From NCBI GenBank assembly GCA_016783455.1, contig JADHWN010000006.1:6142-70141 (forward strand): a DNA stretch of 64,000 nt, written 5' to 3'. This document shows positions 1 to 27,557 of the stretch, piece by piece (positions within the stretch are counted from its first letter, which is position 1; each line of letters starts with the position of its first letter). The position numbers and the translations under genes were made by a program. Below the pieces are notes generated by a model that worked only from the letters and a program-made list of their open reading frames with translations, searched no databases and was not told the DNA's origin. The stretch comes from Candidatus Bathyarchaeota archaeon. GTDB lineage: Archaea; Thermoproteota; Bathyarchaeia; TCS64.

Positions 1-815
1 ATGTTGAGCTCGAGGTTCCTGCTGCAGTTGAACATCATCGTCATGTTCTTGAAGGCGAAGACGGCCTGCTCCCTCTCCTGCATGGTCCACTTGAAGCCTT
101 CGGGTGTCACCATGGTGTAGTTATATGCTCGTACATGGGCGGGTATTCCGGGTATGTTCGGTGAGGGTATGGTCGGTGGCTTCTTCATCTCCCTCACCGT
201 CCATGAGGAGAAGTGGCTGGTGTTGCAGACTAGGAAGCCCTCCCTGTCCATCCAGCTCGTGACGGGATCCCATGCGGTGCCGTTCCAGAAGCACCATCTC
301 AGCCTCTGGGCCTCAACGTACCTCCCGAGCTCGTCCTGAAGCTCCTCGTGGTCTATGTAGAGCCTCATGGTCGCCCTGATCCCACTCGTGGAGTTGGGCT
401 CGATCTCCAGGTATTTATGGAGTCCGTCTTCAGGTCTAGGGACCCCCTCAGGAGGCCCAATCCTCGCATGGATCTTCAGGCTGAGGGAGTCGGTTAGTCT
501 CAGGTTCATCTCGAGTTGCCTCATGGCGAACCCCGGATCCGCAGTTATGTTGAGTTTCATGTCCCTGTTCGCGTTGAACATCATCGTCATGTTCCTGAAC
601 TGGAGCGCCTGCATCGAACCAAGAGAGTAGTTATGAACATAGGCGTGGGGAACGACGTCCGTCATGTTGTACCTCTGTGCTATACTGGGGATCTCAGGAG
701 GCCCGTACTTTTCAGGCCTTGCGGCGAGGACCGTAAATGACCCGATCAATCCCAGGGTCAGGATTACGATTAAGGAAGAGATGACTAATTTGCTAACTAA
801 ATTTTTTCCTGTCAT
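1..815 (-). CDS. Partial surface or secreted glycoprotein (C-terminus beyond window edge), PGF-pre-PGF-like domain, internal ~182-aa repeats
   Basis: Not in ORF track because no stop lies inside the window. ATG at 815-813 and the frame stays open to nt 3. N-terminus MTGKNLVSKLVISSLIVILTLGLIGSF is a signal or anchor. About ten N-x-S/T sequons. Block HKYLEIEPNS..RLYIDHEEL..LRWCFWNGTAWDPV..CNTSHFSSWTV resembles the archaeal PGF-pre-PGF domain. The + strand ORFs 154-339, 367-630 and 516-740 are its antisense shadows. Confidence 0.6.
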   Translation of the reverse strand, partial: MTGKNLVSKLVISSLIVILTLGLIGSFTVLAARPEKYGPPEIPSIAQRYNMTDVVPHAYVHNYSLGSMQALQFRNMTMMFNANRDMKLNITADPGFAMRQLEMNLRLTDSLSLKIHARIGPPEGVPRPEDGLHKYLEIEPNSTSGIRATMRLYIDHEELQDELGRYVEAQRLRWCFWNGTAWDPVTSWMDREGFLVCNTSHFSSWTVREMKKPPTIPSPNIPGIPAHVRAYNYTMVTPEGFKWTMQEREQAVFAFKNMTMMFNCSRNLELN

Positions 816-963
816 ATTCTTCTAGTGGGATATATCCCGAGTGTATATTAGGACTCCTTTGAAACAGTTGTTCCAATTTACTCAAACGGCCCTTATACTC
901 GTTAGAACTCCGTCTCCCTCTACTTTCACCCACCTCTCCTACCCTCACATAACTACGTTCCCC

Positions 964-969
964 TTATAT
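964..969 (+). promoter_or_regulatory. TATA-like box (TTATAT) upstream of radA
   Basis: cccTTATATccc lies about 36-41 nt upstream of the radA start at 1005. AGAGGAGAG, SD-like, sits directly before the start. Confidence 0.3.
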
Positions 970-1004
970 CCCGGAAACCGGAGTTCGCGCAGAGGAGAGA
1001 TGAC

Positions 1005-1958
1005 TTGGCTGAAGTACTTGAGCCTGGGCTCCTGAAGGGCGTCGCGAGCACCACCGTCAACAAGCTCCTGAAGGCGGGCTTCACCACCGTTGAGTCCATA
1101 GCGGTCACCCCCGCCAGGGAGATAGCGGATGTCGTCGGGATGGGAAGCGACACCGCCCTGAAGGTCTGCCGCCTCGCCAGGATGCACGTCGACCCCGGGT
1201 TCATCCCCGCCCTGGAGGTACTAGAGATGAGGAAGAGCATGCTCAAATGCACCACCAGCTCCAGCGAGCTGGATCGCATCTTCGGCGGAGGAGTCGAGAC
1301 GGGCGCCATCACCGAGCTCATCGGAGAGTTCGGCTCAGGGAAGACCCAGATCTGCTTCACCCTCAGCGTCAACGCCCAGCTTCCCAAGGAGGAGGGCGGC
1401 CTCGGCGGCAACGTCTGCGCCATAGACACTGAGGGCACCTTCATGCCCGAGCGCGTCATGCAGATAGCCCAGGAGAAGGGCTTAGACTCCGAGAAGATCC
1501 TGGAGGGCATCCTCGTCGCCAGGGCCTACAACAGCGAGCACCAGGCCCTCCTCATCAGCAGCCTCCCCGAGTTGGTGGATAAGAGCAACATCAAGCTCGT
1601 CATCGTCGACAGCATGATAGGCCACTTCAGGGGCGAGTACATTGGCCGCGCCAACCTCTCCGAGCGCCAGCAGAAGCTCGCCGGCTGCCTCAGCCACCTC
1701 CTCAGGCTCGCCGAGGCCTTCAACGTCGCCGTCGTCATCACCAACCAGGTCCTGTCCACCCCGGACACCATGTACGGGGACCCCAACAAGCCGACGGGCG
1801 GCCACGTCATGGCCCACGCCTGCACCCACAGGGTCTTCCTCAGGAAGGGGAAGCAGAACACCCGCCTCGCCAGGGTCATTGACTCCCCCAGCCTTCCGGA
1901 GGAGAGGGTCAGGTTCGCGATAACCGGAGCCGGCGTCGTGGACGCTGATGAGGAGTAG
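1005..1958 (+). CDS. radA: DNA repair and recombination protein RadA
   Basis: N-terminal HhH-type domain (GVASTTVNKLLKAGFTTVESIA). Walker A GEFGSGKTQ, Walker B LVIVDS and the RecA/Rad51 core. The start is TTG at 1005 preceded by GGAG, so the start is uncertain. Confidence 0.93.
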   Translation: MAEVLEPGLLKGVASTTVNKLLKAGFTTVESIAVTPAREIADVVGMGSDTALKVCRLARMHVDPGFIPALEVLEMRKSMLKCTTSSSELDRIFGGGVETGAITELIGEFGSGKTQICFTLSVNAQLPKEEGGLGGNVCAIDTEGTFMPERVMQIAQEKGLDSEKILEGILVARAYNSEHQALLISSLPELVDKSNIKLVIVDSMIGHFRGEYIGRANLSERQQKLAGCLSHLLRLAEAFNVAVVITNQVLSTPDTMYGDPNKPTGGHVMAHACTHRVFLRKGKQNTRLARVIDSPSLPEERVRFAITGAGVVDADEE

Positions 1959-2191
1959 GCACTATGGGGAGTTTACCCCCACAATTGGGGTGCCCCGCTT
2001 GACCAGCTCTAGGAGATACTCTACCTGGTAGAGGCATCCCTCCGGGGAGAAGATGGTGAAGGCTGCGTCGTACTGGTTTGATCTCATCCCAGCTGCCGAA
2101 GATTGGAGTGCATTGCCCATCAAGCATTATTCTGGCCTCGAGAATGCGAAAAATAGAATTAGGCAGTGTAGGTATTCTTAGTCTGAGGTAA

Positions 2192-3724
2192 ATGTCAAGC
2201 AATTGGGACAAACACTACAACTCGTTGCTCGAGAGATCGAAGGAGCTCAGGGTGCTCATGTCCGCTGGATCCATTCTCGGATGGGATATGCAGACCAAGA
2301 TGCCTCCCGGAGGATTGGAGCTCAGGAGCCAGCAGCTGGCGCTCCTCCAGAAGACGGGCCACCAGATGCTCACCAGCCCGGAGCTGGGAAAGACCCTCAA
2401 GTCGATCGAGGGGCACAAGGACTACGAGAGCCTCACGGAGGTTCAGAAGCGGAACGTGTACCTTGCGCGGTTGGCGTACGACGAGGCAACCAAGCTCCCT
2501 GAGAGGCTTGTCGTCGAGCTGGCCAAGCAGAGGACTATAGGCAGAGGCGTCTGGAGGAAGGCCAAGGCCACCAACGACTGGAAGCTCTTCATGCCCGAGC
2601 TGGAGAAGGTAAAGGCACTGACGGAAGAGTCAGCGCACCTCCTCATGGAGGTCAAGGACGCCACCAACCCGTACGACGCGCTGATCTACGACTACGAGCC
2701 CAAGATGAAGGCCGAAGTCATAACCAAGGTCTTCGACGAGATGAGGCGGGGCATCAAGAGGCTCCTTGAAAAGATCATGGCCCAGCCCAAGCCCGATGTC
2801 AGCTTCCTGAGCAGGGAGATCCCCGTAAGGGTTCAGGAGAAGATCGCCGAGAGCCTGGCCGAGTTCGCCCTGTATGACACCAAGTCGGAGAGGGCCGGCG
2901 GCAGGATCGACGCCACCGAGCACCCCTTCACCACGGGCTACTACACCGATGTCAGGATAACCACGAAGTACTTCGTCAACAACTTCCAGAAGAGCATGTT
3001 CAGCGTCCTCCACGAGGCCGGTCACGCGCTCTACAACATGGGGCTGCCCGCGGAGTGGATGTACCAGCCGGTGGGCGCGGGGGCCAGCAGCGGCATACAC
3101 GAGTCGATGAGCCGGTTCGTCGAGAACCACGTCGGCAGGAGCCGCGAGTTCTGGGAATACTTCATGCCCAAGCTGAAGGGGCTCACGGGTAAGAGGCTGC
3201 GCGATGTCTCCCCGGAGCAGATGTACGCGGCGGTCAACTACGTCACTCCCAGCAAGATCAGGACCCAGTCGGACGAGCTCACCTACGGGATGCACATCAT
3301 AATCAGGTTCGAGCTGGAGAGAGACCTGTTCAACGGGGACCTGGAGGTGAAGGAGCTACCCCAGGTCTGGAATCAGAAGTACATGGACTACCTTGGGGTC
3401 GAGATAGAGACCGACACCGAGGGGGTGATGCAGGACACCCACTGGTCCGGCGGCTCCTTCGGCTACTTCCCCAGCTACGCCCTCGGCAACATCTACGACG
3501 GAGTCTGGCGCGCCAAGATCGACGGCGACCTCCCGGACTGGAAAGAGAGGCTACGGAAAGGCAGTTTCAAGGAGGTCAAGGGCTGGCTAACCGAGAACGT
3601 GTACAGGCACGGTAAGCTCTACGACCCGGAGGAGCTGGTGAAGCGAGTCACGGGGAGGGGCCTCGTCGTCAAACCGTTCTTGGACTACCTAGAAGCCAAG
3701 TACAAGGCCATCTACGGATTCTAA
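2192..3724 (+). CDS. M32 family metallo-carboxypeptidase (Taq-type)
   Basis: HEAGHALY (HExxH) motif, HESMSR, IRTQSDELTY, and ~500 aa length typical of M32. Confidence 0.88.
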   Translation: MSSNWDKHYNSLLERSKELRVLMSAGSILGWDMQTKMPPGGLELRSQQLALLQKTGHQMLTSPELGKTLKSIEGHKDYESLTEVQKRNVYLARLAYDEATKLPERLVVELAKQRTIGRGVWRKAKATNDWKLFMPELEKVKALTEESAHLLMEVKDATNPYDALIYDYEPKMKAEVITKVFDEMRRGIKRLLEKIMAQPKPDVSFLSREIPVRVQEKIAESLAEFALYDTKSERAGGRIDATEHPFTTGYYTDVRITTKYFVNNFQKSMFSVLHEAGHALYNMGLPAEWMYQPVGAGASSGIHESMSRFVENHVGRSREFWEYFMPKLKGLTGKRLRDVSPEQMYAAVNYVTPSKIRTQSDELTYGMHIIIRFELERDLFNGDLEVKELPQVWNQKYMDYLGVEIETDTEGVMQDTHWSGGSFGYFPSYALGNIYDGVWRAKIDGDLPDWKERLRKGSFKEVKGWLTENVYRHGKLYDPEELVKRVTGRGLVVKPFLDYLEAKYKAIYGF

Positions 3725-3728
3725 CCCC

Positions 3729-3737
3729 TTTTTTTTT
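3729..3737 (+). terminator. Oligo-T archaeal-type terminator after the carboxypeptidase gene
   Basis: Run of 9 T starting 5 nt after stop TAA (3722-3724). Confidence 0.5.
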
Positions 3738-3822
3738 ACATCGCGTACGCAGAGAAGGACTAGATCACCTTCTCCGGACTAGGCTGTCTATCCTTCAAAT
3801 ATGATAGAAAGATTGATGGAGA

Positions 3823-4524
3823 TCACCGCATATACTTGGCGACGACCTCTTCGGTCAGCCTCTTCATGGCCTTGGTCTCGGTCGGGATGACCGCGACCCT
3901 GACGACCGCCGACGTGAGCTCCTCGCCGGAGCCCTTCTCGACGGCCCCGATGGCCAGCTTTATGGCCTCGTCGAGGGACAGGTCCTCCTTGAAGTTCTCC
4001 TCGAGATACTTGTTGGACTCCTCGGCGTTCCTGCCAAGAGCCCGAGCCCTGTAGCCCCTGTAGGAGCCGCTGGGGTCGGTGGTGAGGAGGTGGGGCCCGG
4101 TGGTGTCGACGCCGGCGAAGATAATGCTCACCCCGAATGGCCTGATGCCCCCGTGCTGGGTGTAGACCTGGATCTGGTCGCTCAGCGTGCCCACGAGGCC
4201 CTCTACGTCGGCGGGCTCGTCGTAGAGGAGCTTGTTGCTCTGGCAGAAGACCCGGCCCTTGTCGATGAGGACCCGTGCGTCGGAGCTGAGGCCGGCGATG
4301 GCGACGCCCACGTGCTCGTCGATCTGGAATATCTTCCTGAACGTGCTGGTGTCCTCAAGGTTGCTCTCCGGGGTCTCGTTGGCCGCAAGGACCACGCCCT
4401 CCAGCGAGTGGATGCCCACGATGGGTGCCCCACGCTTCACGAGCTCCAGGGCGTACTCGACCTGGTAGAGGCGCCCCTCGGGCGAGAATATGGTTATGGC
4501 GGCGTCGTACTGGTTTCCCCTCAT
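3823..4524 (-). CDS. psmA: Proteasome subunit alpha
   Basis: MRGNQYDAAITIFSPEGRLYQVEYALE is the canonical alpha N-terminus. I place the start at the internal ATG 4524, because the track ORF begins 25 codons upstream with non-conserved sequence. Confidence 0.93.
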   Translation of the reverse strand: MRGNQYDAAITIFSPEGRLYQVEYALELVKRGAPIVGIHSLEGVVLAANETPESNLEDTSTFRKIFQIDEHVGVAIAGLSSDARVLIDKGRVFCQSNKLLYDEPADVEGLVGTLSDQIQVYTQHGGIRPFGVSIIFAGVDTTGPHLLTTDPSGSYRGYRARALGRNAEESNKYLEENFKEDLSLDEAIKLAIGAVEKGSGEELTSAVVRVAVIPTETKAMKRLTEEVVAKYMR

Positions 4525-4642
4525 CAACTTTGTGACCTTCCTTGAGCTTCGATATGAAATGTAGTCAGCATATATAAACGTCGTTGAGGGCGGGGGCAAC
4601 AGTCAAATATGGTATGTTGAACGTTCTCAGCGGAGTTATTAT

Positions 4643-5518
4643 ATGGTGAAGACGAACAAGGAGAACCTCCTGGAGATTGCGCTGCAGGGCGAGATAACCC
4701 ACACGGCGATCCCCTCCACTTACACCACCACCTGGGATAACAAGTCCCAGATGAGCCTGGGTAGGGGGGGCATCGTCTACAACGTCAAGGTGGGCGACCC
4801 CTGCTACGGCTGGGAGCTCGGCGACAACGTCGAGCCCGGGGTCTCCGCGGACGGTACGGACACCGACCGTGCCAAGGGGGGCTTCAGGAACCTGTCCAAC
4901 ATAGGGAACAGGGTCAAGGTCCTCGGCGGAGAGGCCAAAGGGAAGTGGGGCACAGTCATCGGGAAGGTGGGGTACCTGCCCGGGAGGGGCCATCACGTGG
5001 TGATGCACTTCAAGCAGGACGTCATAGACGACCTCACCATCGGCGACAAGGTCCAGATACGCGCCAAGGGGGCGGGGCACAAGTTCCTCGACTACCCCGG
5101 CGTGGCCGTCGTCAGCTGCAGCCCGGAGCTGGTGGAGTCCTGGGGGATCGAGGAGAAGGACGGCAAGCTCCACGTGCCCGTGACCAAGGTGGTCCCCATG
5201 GACTACGTGGGCCAGGGCGCCGGGGGCTCCCCGCCTCAGGCCAGCAACTGGGACATCCAGACCCAGAGCCCCGACGCCGTGGAGTTCTGCAAGGACTTCA
5301 GGTTCGGGGACATCGTGCTCCTGGAGGACACATTGTCCTACTACGGCCGGGGCTACTACCACGGCGCGGTGACCGTGGGCGTCGTAATCACGGGCCCAAG
5401 CAACCACATGGGCCACGGCATCGGCGTCTCCACTCTGCTCTCCTGCAAGGAGGGTCAGATCGTGCCCAAGGTGGATCCGGACCTGAACCTGAAGAAGATG
5501 CTGGACCTGGAGGTATGA
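4643..5518 (+). CDS. DUF4438-like protein, paralog A (291 aa), function unknown
   Basis: N-terminus MVKTNKENLLEIALQGEI, GDPCYGWELGDNVEPGV, GRGYYHGAVTVGVV, GHGIGVSTLL. The family is recalled from memory and needs HMM confirmation. Confidence 0.7.
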   Translation: MVKTNKENLLEIALQGEITHTAIPSTYTTTWDNKSQMSLGRGGIVYNVKVGDPCYGWELGDNVEPGVSADGTDTDRAKGGFRNLSNIGNRVKVLGGEAKGKWGTVIGKVGYLPGRGHHVVMHFKQDVIDDLTIGDKVQIRAKGAGHKFLDYPGVAVVSCSPELVESWGIEEKDGKLHVPVTKVVPMDYVGQGAGGSPPQASNWDIQTQSPDAVEFCKDFRFGDIVLLEDTLSYYGRGYYHGAVTVGVVITGPSNHMGHGIGVSTLLSCKEGQIVPKVDPDLNLKKMLDLEV

Positions 5519-21567: not shown

Positions 21568-21697
21568 GGGCTTATCCGGGTAGAGGCGCCTGCTGCTCAA
21601 GGATGTCCCCCGTGAATGGTTGCGTACGCTCCTTAAAGAGGTGGCGGGCCCAAGACGATTTATAATGAGTCGTTCTGAAGGACGTTGGAGGGACAGC

Positions 21698-22387
21698 ATG
21701 AGGCTCCTAGTCTTCACCGACGGCGACTACGGCCTGAGGATACTTGAGAACATCCGGCTCAGGGGGCCTCGAGACTGGGAGATAACCAACGTTCCTCTCC
21801 CCGAGTCTCTACCCTCCATCGTGGAGGAGCCCGATCTCCTGGTCGACGGCCTGGTGCCAGAGGGAGCCTGGGACCTCATCCTCTTCATGGGTGAGAGCCC
21901 CTCCGCCTTCACCCTCCTACCCTCGATAGCCGCACGTTCCTCCTCTAAGGCTGTCGTCACTCCCGTGGACGACTACTCATGGCTGCCCCTGGGCCTCGAA
22001 CGGCAGGTGAGGTCGGAGCTGGACGGACTGGGCGTGGCCTCCGTCTTCCCGAGGACCTTCTGCACCCTCTCCCCCGTTGGCGTCGCACCGATCGACGAGT
22101 TCGCCGAGGTCTTCGGCCTACCCCTCCTGAAGTTGGAGGTCGAGGAGGGACGGGTGAAGAGCGTGGATGTCCTGAGGGGCGCGCCATGCGGGTCGACGTG
22201 GTTCATGGCGGAGAGACTTGTGGGTGTCGACGTGGGCGAGGCTGGGGCGAAGGCAGGGACCTTCGTCCAGATCTATCCCTGTCTGGCGTCACGGCATGTA
22301 GAGCGCCTCCTGGGAGACGCCCCCATCCATGTGGCGGGGCACATAGCCGAGAGGGCTGTGAAGAAGGCCCTGAAAGAGGATGCCTGA
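21698..22387 (+). CDS. DUF166/COG1810-like conserved archaeal protein
   Basis: MRLLVFTDGDYG.., GAPCGSTWF and IYPCLAS Cys motifs as I recall for DUF166. Start placed at ATG 21698. Confidence 0.5.
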   Translation: MRLLVFTDGDYGLRILENIRLRGPRDWEITNVPLPESLPSIVEEPDLLVDGLVPEGAWDLILFMGESPSAFTLLPSIAARSSSKAVVTPVDDYSWLPLGLERQVRSELDGLGVASVFPRTFCTLSPVGVAPIDEFAEVFGLPLLKLEVEEGRVKSVDVLRGAPCGSTWFMAERLVGVDVGEAGAKAGTFVQIYPCLASRHVERLLGDAPIHVAGHIAERAVKKALKEDA

Positions 22388-22398
22388 ACACGTTCTGG

Positions 22399-23937
22399 TC
22401 AGCTGTCGTCCGCTAGGATGGGTATCTCTGACACTTGTCTCGAGGCGAGCTCCATGTGGACGAAACGGCTCATAGGGGTCGTCGTTGATGACGCCGGGTA
22501 GACCTCGGGGAGCACCTTCACCCAGATGGGGAACCTGAACTTCAGCGCCGTCCCCTTGACGACCGCCTCCCCCTGGGGCAGGTCCCCGATGAGCTTCGAG
22601 AACTCGTCCCCCACGATCTCCGCCAGCCTCTGCCTGTCCAGGTCCTCCAGGCTGTGGCATATGATGTTGTTGGCGCATTGGGTCACCACAGTCTTATCCA
22701 CGGTCGCCAGGCGCTGGGTGACGATCCAGAGGCCGACCCCGTTCCTGCCGCCGTTGGTGGCGATCTCCTTCACCACCCCGAGGAGCCTCCCCCGGGTATC
22801 CTTATCCCCGACATCAAATACTCCCCGCTGGGGAGCGTAGTACATCGCCTCCTCGAGGACGATGACGCAACCGAACTTCCTGTTCTCCAGGGCCTCCCCG
22901 AAGATCCGCCTGAGGACCTGGGCGACGACGAGGTGCTTCTGGGCCCAGGTGTCCCTTCCCCTGGAGATGTCCATGATTACGACGTGGCGTGAGGAGAGGA
23001 GCTCCACCGGGTCCAGGGGCTGGAGGGTGCCGTCGGGGATCAGCTTGGAACCCCCCACGGCGATATGCACCTGCTGCCTGTAGCTCTCGAACTCGTCCTC
23101 CTTCTTCTTGAATCCCAGGGAGTCCCCGCTGACGTAGCCGACGGCTCTCCTCAGGCTCTCCTTGGTCACCTGGGCCGCCTGGGCGTAGAGAATCTTCAGG
23201 GCCTTCACCAGTATCTTGGCGTTCCACCAGGTCTTCTGCCAGCCGAACTCCGCGACGTAGTCCTCCCACGGGATGTCCGAGGGCTGGAAGAAGCGCTCCC
23301 AGGGGACCTTGAGCACCCTCTCCGCCCCGAGGCGCTCCACGAGGCTCGTGTACTCCCCGTCCTTGTCGACTACGAAGAACCTCACGGGGGGGTCAAGCAT
23401 CGCCGCCCTCGCCACCATGGAGACCGCCGTGGTGGTCTTCCCCGTCCCCACCGCCCCGCAGATGAGGGCGCTCTGCCTGATGAGGGGGTAGACGCCGAGC
23501 TCCACGTCGAGGTCGGTGCTCGGGTCGGTGCCTAGGAGGAGCTTCCATTCGCCGTTTGGCTTCGTGAACTTGGCGATGACGTCCCTCTCGGCGTGTTGGA
23601 CGGGGGTGTTTGGCGCGAGGGGGTGCCGGAGGGGCCTGAGGCTGCCGTCCCCGTCTATCCACCCCCACTGGTAGGCGTTGGCGTGGAGCGTGGTGTCATC
23701 GGCGTCCCCGATGATGCGGCCCTCCCTGAGGAGGGTCTCGTCGTAATCCCTCACCCTCTTGTGGGGGTAGACCTCTGTGACCTGGTAGACCACAGGGGAG
23801 CCGTTCTTGGGGTGCTCCACGTGGACGAGCTCCCCCATGGCGATCTCCTCCCCCCTCAGGAGGACGATGGTAAGCTCGTTGAGCCTGTATTCACCGTTCT
23901 CGCTGTAGGTGTAGCCGACCGTCAAGCCCCGAGCCAT
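22399..23937 (-). CDS. herA: HerA-like (DUF87, FtsK/HerA superfamily) ATPase
   Basis: N-terminal HAS-barrel-like region (GELVHVEHP..VVYQVTEVY). Walker A GAVGTGKTT and Walker B CVIVLEEA. Overlaps the upstream nurA by 16 nt. Confidence 0.8.
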   Translation of the reverse strand: MARGLTVGYTYSENGEYRLNELTIVLLRGEEIAMGELVHVEHPKNGSPVVYQVTEVYPHKRVRDYDETLLREGRIIGDADDTTLHANAYQWGWIDGDGSLRPLRHPLAPNTPVQHAERDVIAKFTKPNGEWKLLLGTDPSTDLDVELGVYPLIRQSALICGAVGTGKTTTAVSMVARAAMLDPPVRFFVVDKDGEYTSLVERLGAERVLKVPWERFFQPSDIPWEDYVAEFGWQKTWWNAKILVKALKILYAQAAQVTKESLRRAVGYVSGDSLGFKKKEDEFESYRQQVHIAVGGSKLIPDGTLQPLDPVELLSSRHVVIMDISRGRDTWAQKHLVVAQVLRRIFGEALENRKFGCVIVLEEAMYYAPQRGVFDVGDKDTRGRLLGVVKEIATNGGRNGVGLWIVTQRLATVDKTVVTQCANNIICHSLEDLDRQRLAEIVGDEFSKLIGDLPQGEAVVKGTALKFRFPIWVKVLPEVYPASSTTTPMSRFVHMELASRQVSEIPILADDS

Positions 23938-24980
23938 CCTCCCTCTCCCCAGTATGGCGCCAGGTGGGAGATCTCCCCAGAAGAGCGGCTCACCCTCCCG
24001 ACGATGTCCCCGTAGACTCCGCTGATGAAGCGCTTGGAGACCTTGACCTCCTCGTCGGCCTTCACGATGGGCAGGGGTATCCCCTCCCAGAAGCTGGAGC
24101 CGTAGCAGTAGTCGGCTATCTCCCCCAGCTCACCGAGGCAGAAGGCGGGGGCGTCGATCCTGATGGGGGGTATCGACCACTCATTGGAGGTCCTGGCGTA
24201 GAACGAGTAGATCGGGGACTCAAGGGCGTCCATGAAAGGTGAGACCCTCACCGCCTTCCGTATCGCTGAACGCGGCGAGAATATGTCGGTCCTCTCCCCG
24301 ACCTTCAGTGTCTGGAGCATCAGGAAGGAGTCAGGCAGGTCGGTCTGGTTCTGGAGCCCCAGGTCGTAGACCAGATAGCGGGCGGAGGGGCGCTTCACTA
24401 TCCCGGCGACGGCCACGCCCTCCTCCCTGCACATGTCCAGGAGCCCATTGACGGCGGATATGAGCCTCCTCCTGTCCTCCTCCCGCCCCGCCATGCTCCA
24501 CCAGTTGCTGAAGGCCAGGGGGCCGTCGACGAGGAGCAGCTCGACATCGGGGTGCCCCTTGACGAAGTGCAGCGCGGTCTCGAAGAGCTTCGCCTCCCGT
24601 CTCACGTTCACGACACCGTTCATCTCAGGGACGTCGGAGTAGGGGAAGGACATGGACTCCGGCTGGAGGAAGTGCCTTGAGCCCGCCGGCAGGGTGTAGA
24701 CGAGGGCGCTGATGACAGCGTACCTCCTCGAGGCGAGGGGAAGGATCTGGCTCCCGGCGTCAGCCCCTGCCACGAAACTATAAGGCTCGCGCTTGCCCAT
24801 CGTGTAGAGAGTGAGATCATCCCTTAGTTTTTCGGCTAATTCAGCGATGGCGGGCGAGCTCCGCTCAACGTCGGCGCTGACACGCTCCAGGAGCAGGTCC
24901 CTGATGGCGAGGCAGAGGTTATGGAGGGGCTTACCGACCTCGACGACTTCCTCCTCCACCTTTTCGCGTAGTATCTGCAC
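23922..24980 (-). CDS. nurA: NurA-like nuclease
   Basis: FVAGADAGSQ catalytic-Asp region, LLLVDGPLAF, and the size plus gene order nurA-herA. Confidence 0.7.
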   Translation of the reverse strand: MQILREKVEEEVVEVGKPLHNLCLAIRDLLLERVSADVERSSPAIAELAEKLRDDLTLYTMGKREPYSFVAGADAGSQILPLASRRYAVISALVYTLPAGSRHFLQPESMSFPYSDVPEMNGVVNVRREAKLFETALHFVKGHPDVELLLVDGPLAFSNWWSMAGREEDRRRLISAVNGLLDMCREEGVAVAGIVKRPSARYLVYDLGLQNQTDLPDSFLMLQTLKVGERTDIFSPRSAIRKAVRVSPFMDALESPIYSFYARTSNEWSIPPIRIDAPAFCLGELGEIADYCYGSSFWEGIPLPIVKADEEVKVSKRFISGVYGDIVGRVSRSSGEISHLAPYWGEGGWLGA

Positions 24981-24995
24981 CCGTCCCCGCCCCCA

Positions 24996-25008
24996 GAAAA
25001 ACCGTTTA
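24996..25008. promoter_or_regulatory. Palindromic element GAAAAACCGTTTA (AAAC-C-GTTT) between the nurA start and its TATA-like box
   Basis: A related copy lies at 25068-25082. A TATA-like ggTATTTAAATcc at 25030-25042 is suitably placed for the minus-strand nurA-herA operon. Confidence 0.35.
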
Positions 25009-25067
25009 CATACAACACTTTTTTTCTAAGGTATTTAAATCCTGTGATTATTTCGAGCTTAATTTCT

Positions 25068-25093
25068 GAAAAACCCGGTTTAGTATATAAAGG
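25068..25093 (+). promoter_or_regulatory. Palindromic element GAAAAACCCGGTTTA abutting the TATA-like box GTATATAAAGG of the wHTH operon
   Basis: AAACC-C-GGTTT palindrome at 25068-25082, immediately 5' of TATATAAA (25083-25093). A second TATA-like TTAATAA at about 25151 is closer to the start. Confidence 0.35.
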
Positions 25094-25186
25094 AAGAAAT
25101 TATTACGCTCAATATCAAACTCCATAAAATTGGGCACCCAAAAGCAAAGTTAATAAGAAGATCGAAAAAGTGTAGGTTGACCCGAA

Positions 25187-25432
25187 TTGACCGAGGAATA
25201 CACCCTCCGGGAGAAGGTTTTCCGGACCTTTTTGAAGCAGCCGAGTCTTGGCCCAAGCGAGATGGCCGAGCACCTAGGGGCCAAGTACAACTCCGTAAAG
25301 GCCGCCTATGCGAAGCTCTCAGATGAGGGCCTCCTGATGCGTAGGGGGCGCGGCAGCTATTCGCCGAACGTCCCGGGTATCCTCCTCCATCTAATGGACA
25401 GGGTCGAGGCCCAGGAGAAAGGGTCGAAATAG
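25187..25432 (+). CDS. Small winged-helix protein P1 (81 aa), first of five tandem paralogs
   Basis: LREKVFRTFLKQPSLGPSEMAEHLGAKYNSVKAAYAKLSDEGLLMRRGRGSY has the wHTH layout. TTG start, so the start is uncertain. Confidence 0.55.
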   Translation: MTEEYTLREKVFRTFLKQPSLGPSEMAEHLGAKYNSVKAAYAKLSDEGLLMRRGRGSYSPNVPGILLHLMDRVEAQEKGSK

Positions 25433-25444
25433 GAGTGGATCGAA

Positions 25445-25714
25445 ATGTCTAGTCTGCTTGATAAGGCCCTAAAGGACCTGAGGCCGGGGACCAGCCAGTT
25501 CAAGGTGCTGGTCTACCTCGCCTTCAAGGGCCCAGCCTCCCCGAACCAGATCAGCGAGGAGACGGGGATCTCCCCGGGCACCGTCCGTCCGGCCCTCAGG
25601 GCCCTCCTAGTGAAGAAGTACCTGAACCAGAGGCGGGACGGCTCGTACCAGTCGAAGATCGCCTTCACCGACTTCGTGTCCGACATCTACCTGAACTACA
25701 TCCGGAAGCAGTGA
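25445..25714 (+). CDS. Small winged-helix protein P2 (89 aa)
   Basis: SQFKVLVYLAFKGPASPNQISEETGISPGTVRPALRALLVKKYLNQRRDGSY. GGAG SD, and a 12-nt gap after P1. Confidence 0.7.
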   Translation: MSSLLDKALKDLRPGTSQFKVLVYLAFKGPASPNQISEETGISPGTVRPALRALLVKKYLNQRRDGSYQSKIAFTDFVSDIYLNYIRKQ

Positions 25715-25730
25715 GCGGGAGCCGGTGACC

Positions 25731-25988
25731 ATGAGCGGATCCGAGGAGCTTGACGGACTGAGGCGGGCTGAGAGCCAGCGAGAGGTCCTGCTCCTCCTCG
25801 TGGAGAGGGGGGAGGCGATGTCCTCCAAGGACGTGGCGGAGGCCCTGGGCCTCACCGTGAACGCCGTGAACATAGCCCTCTTCAACCTCTTCAACAAGGG
25901 GCTCGTGGACAGGGTCTCCAGGGGGATCTACAGGTACAAGATGGGGCCCATCCTCGTGAAGCTCCTAGAGCAGTACCTTGAGAGGTAG
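25731..25988 (+). CDS. Small winged-helix protein P3 (about 85 aa)
   Basis: SQREVLLLLVERGEAMSSKDVAEALGLTVNAVNIALFNLFNKGLVDRVSRGIYRY. ATG 25731, with GTG 25725 also possible. Confidence 0.7.
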   Translation: MSGSEELDGLRRAESQREVLLLLVERGEAMSSKDVAEALGLTVNAVNIALFNLFNKGLVDRVSRGIYRYKMGPILVKLLEQYLER

Positions 25989-25992
25989 AGAC

Positions 25993-26253
25993 ATGCCCGT
26001 GGACAACGAGAAGCTCGATGCCCTGAAGCTGCGGACGTCGGCATTCAAGGTCCTCTGCTTCCTCGCATTCAAGGACGGCGCCCTGAAGCCCTCGGAGATC
26101 GCCGAAGGCACCGGGGAGAAGCCCTCGACGGTCCGGGCGCGCCTCACGGAGCTGAAGGCCTCGGGCCTCGTGGAATCAAGACCAAGGGGATGGGTCTCCG
26201 CTGTAAGACCCTACGATATACTCATGAAGATGTATCGAGAATTAAGGACGTAG
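25993..26253 (+). CDS. Small winged-helix protein P4 (about 86 aa)
   Basis: SAFKVLCFLAFKDGALKPSEIAEGTGEKPSTVRARLTELKASGLVESRPRGW is a clear paralog of P2. The ATG is 4 nt after the P3 stop, and GAGAGGT acts as the SD. Confidence 0.7.
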   Translation: MPVDNEKLDALKLRTSAFKVLCFLAFKDGALKPSEIAEGTGEKPSTVRARLTELKASGLVESRPRGWVSAVRPYDILMKMYRELRT

Positions 26254-26269
26254 AAGAGTTGACTGAAGC

Positions 26270-26587
26270 ATGACTGAAGAGCAGGTCTCTGAACTTAGGA
26301 GCATGATGGACGAGATAGCGAAGCTTTCCAAAGCCCCCAGCCAGATGCAGGTCTTCTACCATCTCCTGGGAACGGGGCGCTCCATGTCCGTCAAGGAGCT
26401 CTCCACGGAGCTCTCCCTCACCTCCAAGGCCACGGAGAGGGCAGTGGCCAAGCTCGTTGACAAGGATCTCATCCAGAGGGCTTCTTTCCGGCAGCGCTCC
26501 TACACCTGCGACAGCAAGCAGATACTCCTGGGATTGCTGGTCAACCTGACGGATCTCAAGGACCGGCTGGACAGAAAGGGGCTCTAG
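26270..26587 (+). CDS. Small winged-helix protein P5 (105 aa)
   Basis: SQMQVFYHLLGTGRSMSVKELSTELSLTSKATERAVAKLVDKDLIQRASFRQRSY plus a C-terminal helix. Confidence 0.65.
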   Translation: MTEEQVSELRSMMDEIAKLSKAPSQMQVFYHLLGTGRSMSVKELSTELSLTSKATERAVAKLVDKDLIQRASFRQRSYTCDSKQILLGLLVNLTDLKDRLDRKGL

Positions 26588-27055
26588 CTACTTCTTCTTG
26601 AGGGGAGGGATGACCTCCTCCTCGATCCACTTGACCCCCTTCGACGAGAGCTTGTAGTAGGGCGCCCTGTCCACGGGCTTGAAGATGTGCCCCCTCCGCC
26701 TCATCTCGTGGAGCCGGGCCGGGACTGTCACCTTCTTCCCGCTGGCGGTCAGCCTCCGGGTGATCTCCCGGGAGCTCGCCTGATGGTCCCTCACGCAGTA
26801 GAGTATCAGGCCGATGCAGGCGTAGTGGCTGAGCTTCTTCTTGGTCACGATGATGGGGCCGTCCCTGCCCACCTCGATGACCCCCTTCAGGTCGTCCTTC
26901 GCCTGGGTGGCGAGGAGCTCCGAGACCCTCTCGTTGACCTCGCCGATGAACTTCTGGTCGAGCCTCTCAAGGGCGTCCAGGACCTCCTCGGGGGTCTCCC
27001 CGCTCACCTCTATCTCCCCGAACGGGGTGTTGATGGAGAGGGCGATCCGGGGCAT
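26588..27055 (-). CDS. Two-domain protein P6: novel N-terminal domain plus C-terminal winged helix
   Basis: Start placed at ATG 27055 (MPRIALSINTPFGEIEVSGETPEEVLDALERL). C-terminal wHTH is SSREITRRLTASGKKVTVPARLHEMRRRGHIFKP..YYKLSSKG. Its stop abuts the P5 stop with a 0-nt spacer. Confidence 0.6.
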   Translation of the reverse strand: MPRIALSINTPFGEIEVSGETPEEVLDALERLDQKFIGEVNERVSELLATQAKDDLKGVIEVGRDGPIIVTKKKLSHYACIGLILYCVRDHQASSREITRRLTASGKKVTVPARLHEMRRRGHIFKPVDRAPYYKLSSKGVKWIEEEVIPPLKKK

Positions 27056-27501
27056 CACTCGGCCTCCGGCTCGTTGACGACGTAGAGGTAGCCCCTCTTC
27101 TTGTCCTTCCACCGCCTAAGCTGACCCTTCTTCACGAGCCAGACCAGGACCCCCGAGAGGGTGGTCTTGGGGAAGAAGACGGCGTTCGCCTCCATCGCCT
27201 CCCTGAGCTGCCCGATAGGCCTGGGGGTCTTCCCCCAATCCGTGGAGAGGAGGCTAACGACGGCCTCGCTGCACTGGTTGGTCCGGGGGATCTTGGGGTA
27301 CTTGAGGGACTCGTCTTCCTCCTCTTTCGCGGGCTCCACGAGCCTGGTCTCGGGAATCGGGCCGCTGTTGAAGGCGATGGTCACCTTGTCCACTATTTCC
27401 TTGAGGTCGTCGAGCGTCGAGAGGACCTCCTGCTTCTCCCCGCCGAGCTCAACCTCCATCTCCCCGATCTTGACCTTGAGACGAAAAGGAGTCTGCTCCA
27501 T
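27055..27501 (-). CDS. Two-domain protein P7: paralog of P6 (novel N-terminal domain plus C-terminal winged helix)
   Basis: MEQTPFRLKVKIGEMEVELGGEKQEVLSTLDDLKEIV parallels the P6 N-terminus. C-terminus is IGQLREAMEANAVFFPKTTLSGVLVWLVKKGQLRRW. The TGA stop overlaps the P6 ATG (gTGATGc). Confidence 0.6.
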   Translation of the reverse strand: MEQTPFRLKVKIGEMEVELGGEKQEVLSTLDDLKEIVDKVTIAFNSGPIPETRLVEPAKEEEDESLKYPKIPRTNQCSEAVVSLLSTDWGKTPRPIGQLREAMEANAVFFPKTTLSGVLVWLVKKGQLRRWKDKKRGYLYVVNEPEAE

Positions 27502-27557
27502 GAGATCACAAACTGAACTAATACCCGTAATAATTATGATGGTTATTATATAATACT

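Follow-up and report, generated by a model that had tools for sequence, protein, structure and literature searches.

A 64-kb window of DNA from Candidatus Bathyarchaeota archaeon (contig JADHWN010000006.1; the window is the whole stretch of 64,000 nucleotides (nt) that was analysed) contains a 5.1-kb block between a DUF166-like gene and gatE, in which a second NurA–HerA nuclease–translocase pair, NurA2–HerA2, is encoded together with seven small winged helix-turn-helix (wHTH) proteins. This module is conserved in all 80 Bathyarchaeia loci examined. The explanation that we judge to be somewhat on the probable side is that the block is one vertically inherited module around this second pair, in which a core DNA-end-processing machine would work with wHTH adaptor or regulator subunits. 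That the genes make up one system is supported for NurA2–HerA2 and the x family (x148, x155 and their relatives), and is probable when the array of w genes (w1–w5) is included. The cluster is apparently undescribed, as a literature search found no published account of a NurA–HerA/wHTH cluster and no description of wHTH partners for HerA–NurA. The gene content and borders given for the block in the original prediction, which had been made from the letters alone, were reproduced by open reading frame (ORF) listing and Pfam. The features are as follows, with protein lengths in amino acids (aa):

21620–22387, plus strand: DUF166 gene, flanking the block on the herA2 side
22399–23937, minus strand: herA2, HerA-type hexameric translocase ATPase, 512 aa; Pfam DUF87
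23922–24980, minus strand: nurA2, NurA-family nuclease, 352 aa; Pfam NurA
24981–25186: divergent control region between nurA2 and w1, AT-rich, 206 nt, conserved
25187–25432, plus strand: w1, small wHTH protein, 81 aa, GntR-like helix-turn-helix
25445–25714, plus strand: w2, small wHTH protein, 89 aa
25725–25988, plus strand: w3, small wHTH protein, 87 aa; best-conserved member of the array
25978–26253, plus strand: w4, small wHTH protein, 91 aa as an ORF
26270–26587, plus strand: w5, wHTH protein, 105 aa, extended by helices at both termini
26588–27055, minus strand: x155, x-family protein, N-terminal beta-hairpin and helices, C-terminal wHTH
27055–27501, minus strand: x148, x-family paralog, 148 aa
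27502–27557, minus strand: promoter-like region of x148–x155, downstream of gatE, with conserved blocks

The block consists of three transcription-unit-like parts: nurA2–herA2, whose genes overlap by 16 nt; the divergent w1–w5 operon, with spacings of −11 to +16 nt between genes; and the convergent, translationally coupled x148–x155, in which the x148 stop and the x155 ATG overlap by 1 nt. In the window, the convergent w5 and x155 genes end directly against each other, their stop codons being 0 nt apart (median gap −4 nt in 39 loci). Because the stops abut, the two transcripts must overlap or end inside the opposing gene, and there could be antisense interplay at this point.

Pfam matches to NurA, DUF87 and wHTH families bore out the predicted combination of a nuclease, a hexameric-translocase-type ATPase and many DNA-binding modules. 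The herA2 product matches DUF87 (PF01935) with 37 bits against a cutoff of 23.2 over residues 139–345. Its Walker A motif GAVGTGKTT and acidic LEEA motif are invariant among 60 homologs, with residues G161, G164, G166, K167, T168, T169, E362 and E363 identical in 60/60. An AlphaFold2 model of HerA2 (predicted local distance difference test score (pLDDT) 84, predicted template modelling score (pTM) 0.82) found as its top Foldseek match the Thermococcus kodakarensis HerA in the HerA–NurA complex (9x1m_A, E 1.8e-26, TMq 0.73), and also matched Sulfolobus solfataricus HerA (4d2i_B, E 1e-25). In this model, the full-length predicted fold, an N-terminal barrel and a RecA-like core with a helical insert, matches the solved HerA subunits. 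HerA2 scored 44.7, 39.3 and 54 bits against the NCBIfam equivalogs HerA_Thermprot, helicase_HerA and HerA_antiphage, far under cutoffs of 800–970 bits (800 bits for HerA_antiphage), and therefore lies outside every named NCBIfam HerA equivalog. Across Bathyarchaeia its homologs are 56–97% identical to it, and in the homolog search that gave identities of 58–97% every named one is from Bathyarchaeota/Bathyarchaeia. The nurA2 product matches NurA (PF09376) with 49.3 bits against a cutoff of 21 over residues 82–314, and its residues D74, E129, D152, K196/R197 and D309 are invariant in 25 orthologs.

Archaeal HerA–NurA is normally encoded with mre11 and rad50. The pair studied here shares with the archaeal HerA–NurA end-resection complex (4d2i; 9x1l/9x1m) its adjacent and overlapping genes, NurA and DUF87 domains, HerA fold and Walker motifs, but in the window it is unlinked to mre11 and rad50, neither of which was found in the 64 kb, and it always occurs with x or w wHTH genes. 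It is a distinct paralogue, since locus L061 carries a canonical rad50-nurA1-herA1-mre11 cluster (54–4657) on the same contig as nurA2–herA2, and canonical Bathyarchaeia HerA1 is only about 27% identical to the HerA2 of the window. In L061, about 3.5 kb separate the end of the canonical cluster from the first x gene, which is downstream of it, and about 5.5 kb separate it from nurA2; in L081, L086–L089 and L090–L091 the canonical operon is likewise present as a separate locus. Repair genes also neighbour nurA2–herA2 in some relatives: an Mre11-like gene lies directly downstream of herA2 in L073 alone, with a Rad50-like gene 3.6 kb further, L064 has another Mre11-like gene close to the operon, and in L068 herA2 adjoins a gene for a Hel308-type helicase. 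As Mre11, Rad50 and Hel308 genes are neighbouring or co-resident in these relatives, we read the role of the module as genome maintenance.

To place the small genes, the 80 species-level loci from a HerA search of species-representative genomes were compared with the window by tblastn of all window proteins, and hidden Markov models built from orthologs were run against all ORFs of the loci. Every small gene has positional orthologs. Within the clade of the window, a locus was counted as informative if its HerA was at least 62% identical and enough upstream sequence was available (n=43). The original prediction of one undescribed system would fail if the wHTH genes did not co-occur with NurA–HerA in other genomes; such a lack of co-occurrence was looked for, and the w array was found in 43/43 informative loci, with all seven small genes detected by the models in 39. 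The gene order gatD-gatE-x148-x155-w5-w4-w3-w2-w1-nurA-herA was the same wherever tblastn matches were read. Averaged over the 31 species that have every gene of the set, identity to the window was 74% for HerA, 70% for w3, 64.5% for x148, 64% for gatD and 63% for both gatE and w1, followed by 59% for w2 and NurA, 58% for w4, 56% for x155 and 54% for w5. The whole set diverges about as slowly as the neighbouring housekeeping genes, and HerA is more conserved than gatDE.

An apparent loss of small genes in L004 (CP070640) was rejected, as a run of N inside nurA marks an assembly gap. Three contigs (DATLAV, DATKWN and DATKWY; L003, L015 and L029) carry the full archaeal cluster and gatDE synteny under the bacterial metagenome-assembled genome names Patescibacteria, Krumholzibacteriaceae and Desulfaltia, and are most likely mis-binned.

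The x proteins are a narrow family without a Pfam match, in which an N-terminal domain is followed by a C-terminal wHTH. Neither x148 nor x155 matched any Pfam family, the two are paralogs over their full length (hhalign probability (P) 94), and an exhaustive profile search found only 83 relatives among 1.84 billion representatives. The AlphaFold2 model of x155 (pLDDT 66) opens with a beta-hairpin and two helices, from which a disordered linker leads to a C-terminal winged helix that has a trailing helix; the wHTH has H-H-H-strand-strand topology and its Foldseek matches were only generic forkhead, MarR and PadR winged helices with E 0.08 or worse. A recognisable wHTH is present in all seven small proteins, as had been predicted, with the weakest support for x148, whose C-terminal part gave a weak BlaI/MarR-like match (E 0.07, profile search). 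PDB sequence and profile searches with x155, x148, w1 and w3 returned weak generic wHTH matches only. The 174-aa ORF originally proposed for x155 had to be shortened: in-frame stops interrupt the 5′ extension (the first 19 codons, upstream of Met20) of many orthologs, and those listed among the 478 database homologs, for which there is no Pfam match either, are about 155 aa long, so the true gene is the 155-aa ORF at 26588–27055.

Two distant proteins carry x-like modules next to ATPase domains. P0413, one of the 83 relatives and a 466-aa protein of an unclassified archaeon (L082/L083, 8001–9401), has an N-terminal DUF87 P-loop and an x-like module at residues 335–464, which matches the x profile with E 8.8e-7 against 1.84 billion proteins. 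This DUF87/x fusion hints that x modules work with HerA-type ATPases. P0411, a distant x-family match, joins AAA_22/AAA_16 to an x-like wHTH. Both architectures, an ATPase with an x-like module, are shared with AAA+/P-loop ATPases that have a C-terminal winged helix (Orc1/Cdc6-like) and suggest that the x wHTH cooperates with an ATPase. Unlike the Orc1/Cdc6-like proteins, the wHTH modules of the window are separate small proteins, with an N-terminal domain of their own, and Pfam found no Orc/Cdc6 domain.

The link between x genes and the nuclease–translocase pair extends to deep lineages, where HerA is 56–60% identical to that of the window and w1–w5 are absent. There, nurA2–herA2 is preceded by two to four x paralogs on the same strand, usually directly and with overlapping genes in several loci; at least two co-directional x genes were found in 7/7 deep loci. 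The x148 ortholog is usually the gene immediately upstream of nurA2 (L061, L065, L069, L076 and L080), and in L065 and L080 gatDE is shifted to the other side while the x genes remain with nurA. In a distant lineage, on the 817-kb contig that encodes the x-family member P0391 (L084/L085), three x genes and an x148-like gene are followed by NurA and then HerA genes, neither of whose products is BLAST-detectable against those of the window. There, a layout of four x genes, a hairpin, NurA and HerA is set among unrelated flanks (PheRS, DUF1512 and TatD). The deep-clade proteins xb and xc match x155 over their full length (hhalign P about 99), and their wHTH domains match w1–w4 (P 88–95) and, weakly, w5 (P 40–50).

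In the deep clade, a conserved GC-rich hairpin of the form GGGTC, a 10-bp stem of variable sequence and GACAAACC lies between nurA2 and the last x gene, just upstream of a G-rich Shine-Dalgarno-like run. It precedes nurA2 in most deep lineages and is absent from the window. RNAalifold on seven sequences gave compensatory double changes in 7/15 pairs, with a stem indel that makes the alignment inconsistent. The hairpin has no Rfam match, and Rfam likewise gave none on five deep-clade loci or on the window at 21–29 kb. The hairpin may act between cistrons in processing, stability or attenuation. Its coordinates are:

L061: 8834–8933
L064: 5172–5262
L070: 8842–8933
L080: 5725–5804
L069: 1605–1679
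L068: about 250–329
L085: 9949–10020

In the clade of the window, the w array accompanies the pair. The proteins w1–w5 are mutual paralogs (hhalign P 86–99.6), with w2/w4 (P 99.6) and w3/w5 (P 98.7) as pairs, and every one of them carries a conserved signature of its own and has positional orthologs in other species. Only w4 (HTH_IclR, 30.2 bits against a cutoff of 22) and w5 (MarR_2, 27.6 bits against 27) pass Pfam cutoffs. The matches of w1–w3 are sub-threshold: GntR, Crp and TrmB for w1; MarR_2, IclR and HTH_24, slightly under cutoff, for w2; and TrmB for w3 (25.2 bits against 25.6). In profile searches of the PDB, w1 matched the GabR/GntR wHTH (E 0.005) and w3 the ST1889/Lrs14-like, ZitR/AdcR and TFE wHTH (E about 1e-3). 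Positional orthologs of w1 are 53–98% identical (59 loci) and those of w2 45–78%. Most of the seven small proteins are basic, with isoelectric points of 9.2–9.9; w3 and x148 are exceptions. The w4 gene probably starts at the ATG at 25993, giving 86 aa, since the first 12 residues of the ORF are unconserved in orthologs and this ATG lies 4 nt past the w3 stop. Translation of w1 starts at TTG in the window, as in one of the orthologs, and at an ATG in the same position in 58/59 orthologs. In one subclade (L028, 6962–7735; same gap in L023, L025, L045 and L062), an extra opposite-strand gene for a 257-aa protein, which by eye only has an acetyltransferase-like N-terminus and an OB-fold-like C-terminus, lies between w5 and w4.

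As single-domain wHTH proteins of 81–105 aa, w1–w5 resemble the small archaeal wHTH regulators (Lrs14/Sta1, MarR/ArsR/TrmB and GntR-type) that are their best family matches. They differ in lying far under the NCBIfam cutoffs: against the Lrs14/Sta1 models, w3 scored 25.7–26.2 bits and w5 25.2–28.2 bits, with cutoffs of 80–90, so at the level of these profiles the likeness is that of a generic wHTH only. Five fixed-order paralogs in one operon would also be unusual for such regulators. Small archaeal wHTH regulators typically have a divergent, autoregulated promoter and a palindromic operator. Across 60 loci the spacer between nurA2 and w1 is 192–219 nt long, with a G+C content of 0.26–0.42 and blocks that are at least 90% conserved. 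The elements of this region and of the x148 upstream region are:

25032–25039, minus strand: TATA-like box TTTAAATA for nurA2–herA2, followed by conserved GAAAAAAAGTGTTGTA at 25012–25026
25055–25110: interrupted inverted repeat GAGC-TTAATTTC ... TATATAAA ... GAAATTATTAC-GCTC, candidate operator straddling a TATA-like box
25138–25160, plus strand: promoter-like block CCAAAAGCAAAGTTAATAAGAAG close to w1, whose TATA-like TTAATAAG precedes the w1 start by about 30 nt
27502–27557, minus strand: x148–x155 promoter-like elements, namely the AAGTATTATA box at 27544–27556, TAATTATTA, and the Shine-Dalgarno-like motif GTGAT at 27505–27510

The block was predicted to have its own divergent control region with paired palindromes. 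The control region was confirmed; in place of paired palindromes there is one conserved interrupted inverted repeat. Both arms of this repeat and the central TATATA are conserved (60 loci). AATTTC-N29-GAAATT is present a single time in the 64 kb of the window, against 0.01 expected by chance, and was found in exact form once each, at the equivalent position, in 31 loci. All loci in which the exact pattern was found bear w genes, except L013, whose contig ends before the w1 position, and none of them belongs to the deep clade. An inverted repeat straddling a TATA-like box is the classic repressor–operator geometry, and we infer that w proteins bind this candidate operator. The blocks GGGTTTAAATAT and GAAAAAAAGTGTTGTA are conserved in an alignment of 60 intergenic regions, and the TTTAAATA box is the putative nurA2–herA2 promoter, as judged from the archaeal TATA consensus. 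The w1-proximal block CCAAAAG(C/T)AAAGTTAATAAGAAG, with the reverse complement CTTCTTATTAACTTT-ACTTTTGG, is about 90% conserved (60 loci), and the spacing of this promoter-like element suggests that the w1 mRNA would be leaderless or have a short leader. Upstream of x148, the promoter-like blocks are conserved in an alignment of 51 upstream regions and form a putative promoter. In the same region, TAATTATTAC at 27529–27538 resembles AATTATTACG of the right arm of the nurA2/w1 inverted repeat; the two may be a shared half-site, with only moderate conservation.

These data also bear on a simpler explanation, in which only synteny joins the genes: NurA2–HerA2, perhaps with x, would be a repair module, and the w genes would encode independent small transcription factors or chromatin-like proteins of the Lrs14/MarR type. 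We regard this as unlikely, though far from negligible. Synteny in these loci holds equally for the flanking gatDE, NUDIX and pyrB genes, w1–w5 are absent from the deep lineages that retain nurA2–herA2, the w proteins resemble ordinary small archaeal wHTH regulators (ST1889/Lrs14-like, ZitR, TFE and GntR; E 1e-3 to 5e-3), and in one subclade the unrelated 257-aa gene has been inserted into the array. However, the w operon and nurA2 share a conserved divergent promoter region of fixed length, whose inverted repeat recurs neither elsewhere in the window nor elsewhere in the loci. The nearest relatives of the w1–w4 wHTH domains are those of xb and xc; these two genes share an operon with nurA2–herA2 and are absent just where the w array occurs, and the array is kept in every informative locus.

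Several observations weigh against the explanation of a single inherited module. The links from the w proteins to NurA–HerA are all indirect, comprising the shared divergent promoter and the homology of the w wHTH to xb/xc, and because the neighbouring housekeeping genes are equally syntenic in the clade of the window, the adjacency of the w array alone could be conserved gene order. The invariant acidic residues of NurA2, candidates for those of an RNase H-like active site, could not be mapped onto solved NurA, as there was no sequence-level match between NurA2 and the solved NurA sequences in the PDB. The proximity of Mre11, Rad50 and Hel308 genes was seen in four deep-clade loci only, and none of these genes is near the pair in the window. 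A search for HerA1 listed no match on complete HerA2-bearing chromosomes (1.50 and 2.30 Mb), with the best 8000 word-sharing candidates scored, so that absence is not established. The N-terminal domain of x155 matched no known fold in PDB sequence and profile searches or by Foldseek, from a model with a pLDDT of only 66. Finally, P0413 holds only the N-terminal part of DUF87 and is encoded between PFOR and ProRS genes, without NurA.

The original prediction had offered two functional alternatives, the first of which was a DNA-targeting or defence machine with multiple specificity and regulatory subunits. In the form considered here, it would act against viruses or plasmids; NurA–HerA would be the DNA-degrading effector, and the wHTH proteins would sense, confer specificity or regulate. 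Known anti-phage systems, among them Sir2-HerA and DUF4297-HerA, have HerA ATPases as their motors, the HerA of the window matches PADLOC HerA models (best E 4.4e-21, partial) and HerA_antiphage, bacterial anti-phage HerA structures were matched by Foldseek with E about 1e-21, and the w proteins gave weak matches to the helix-turn-helix domains of CasR, Csa3 and AbiEi. Against this, the 54 bits for HerA_antiphage compare with a cutoff of 800, and the anti-phage structures rank after the repair-type archaeal HerA proteins that are the top structural matches. NurA, x148 and x155 have no PADLOC match, and HerA2 has NurA as its neighbour, with no Sir2 or DUF4297 partner. In Sir2-HerA/Nezha and DUF4297-HerA, which are bacterial anti-phage systems, a HerA-type hexameric ATPase is likewise the scaffold or motor, there for a nuclease or NADase effector. 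Unlike these systems, the cluster of the window has a NurA partner and extra wHTH genes, and is syntenic and slow-evolving instead of patchy. Defence genes are patchy, fast-evolving and associated with islands. The cluster, by comparison, was present in all 80 loci of the HerA search, in a housekeeping context, and diverges at a rate equal to or slower than that of gatDE; this slow divergence, presence in every retrieved locus and housekeeping context disfavour a defence island or a recent domestication. A defence machine is accordingly not supported, the same arrangement being found in 43/43 informative loci, and we consider it improbable.

The second alternative, a domesticated plasmid module for partition or DNA processing, considered here together with a viral source and with a replication-origin locus that has winged-helix initiators, appears more improbable still, to the point that we give it very little credence. 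Archaeal mobile elements often carry FtsK/HerA-type ATPases and wHTH proteins. ‘Dark matter islands’ show an enrichment of arCOGs for HerA-like helicases and wHTH proteins (PMC4158269). Superficially, the AT-rich region and its inverted repeats also look like an origin or partition site. However, no close plasmid relative was found, the nearest reaching at most 34% identity over about 30% of HerA, there was no phage relative, and NurA and the x proteins have no PHROG, so the proposed plasmid-derived module finds no support. A Pfam scan of the block found no ParA/ParB-type protein. As originally predicted, no integrase or capsid gene is present among the ORFs covered by Pfam, namely those of the block and 11 flanking ones; this search took in neither the remaining large ORFs of the window nor direct repeats at the borders of the block. 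No tRNA gene lies in the 64-kb window. The coding G+C content of the block (0.59–0.66) is the same as that of its flanks, in line with the predicted host-like composition, while the nurA2/w1 gap has 0.36 compared with about 0.62 around it. The flanks consist of housekeeping genes (GatE, GatD, Elp3-like, PyrB, M20 peptidase and NUDIX). A replication origin was rejected, as the GC skew tracks gene orientation only, with no switch beyond this effect, and the control region has a single inverted repeat in place of multiple boxes like origin recognition boxes (ORB-like).

Under the favoured explanation of one vertically inherited module, HerA2 would act as a hexameric DNA translocase that, with NurA2 as a dimeric nuclease, threads and degrades DNA ends, by analogy with known HerA–NurA. 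The x proteins would be adaptor or loader subunits, with N-terminal domains that may oligomerise or dock on HerA2/NurA2 and a wHTH that would bind DNA. The ancestral operon may have been xa-xb-xc-xd-nurA-herA, with xb and xc replaced in the clade of the window by the expanded, divergently placed w array, which lacks the N-terminal domains. One or more w proteins might bind the inverted repeat and so control both divergent promoters. The role would be in core genome maintenance, for example at breaks or stalled forks, and not in immunity. A more ambitious proposal, which we put forward only tentatively, is that NurA2–HerA2 and the x proteins, joined in the clade of the window by the w proteins, form a previously unrecognised multi-subunit holo-complex, in which four to seven wHTH subunits load or target the nuclease motor onto specific DNA structures. 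This would be a Bathyarchaeia-specific core genome-maintenance machine, parallel to the Mre11–Rad50-linked pair or in some lineages replacing it, autoregulated by the operator that straddles the TATA-like box, with the intercistronic RNA hairpin of the deep lineages tuning nurA–herA expression.

HerA–NurA is the archaeal end-resection motor, which is otherwise found with Mre11–Rad50 or, in bacteria, rewired for anti-phage defence. The locus described here suggests a third HerA–NurA arrangement, in which a paralogous pair is tied to a private winged-helix family across the Bathyarchaeia lineages examined. The conserved putative operator and the covarying hairpin of the deep clade are regulatory elements that are ready to be tested. 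Bathyarchaeia are an uncultured archaeal class whose sequenced members come from many environments. If the small proteins are subunits, the module would show how a ring translocase–nuclease gains specificity for DNA structures or sites, would add new families such as the x family, and would give a testable handle on genome maintenance in organisms whose cultivation is not yet possible.

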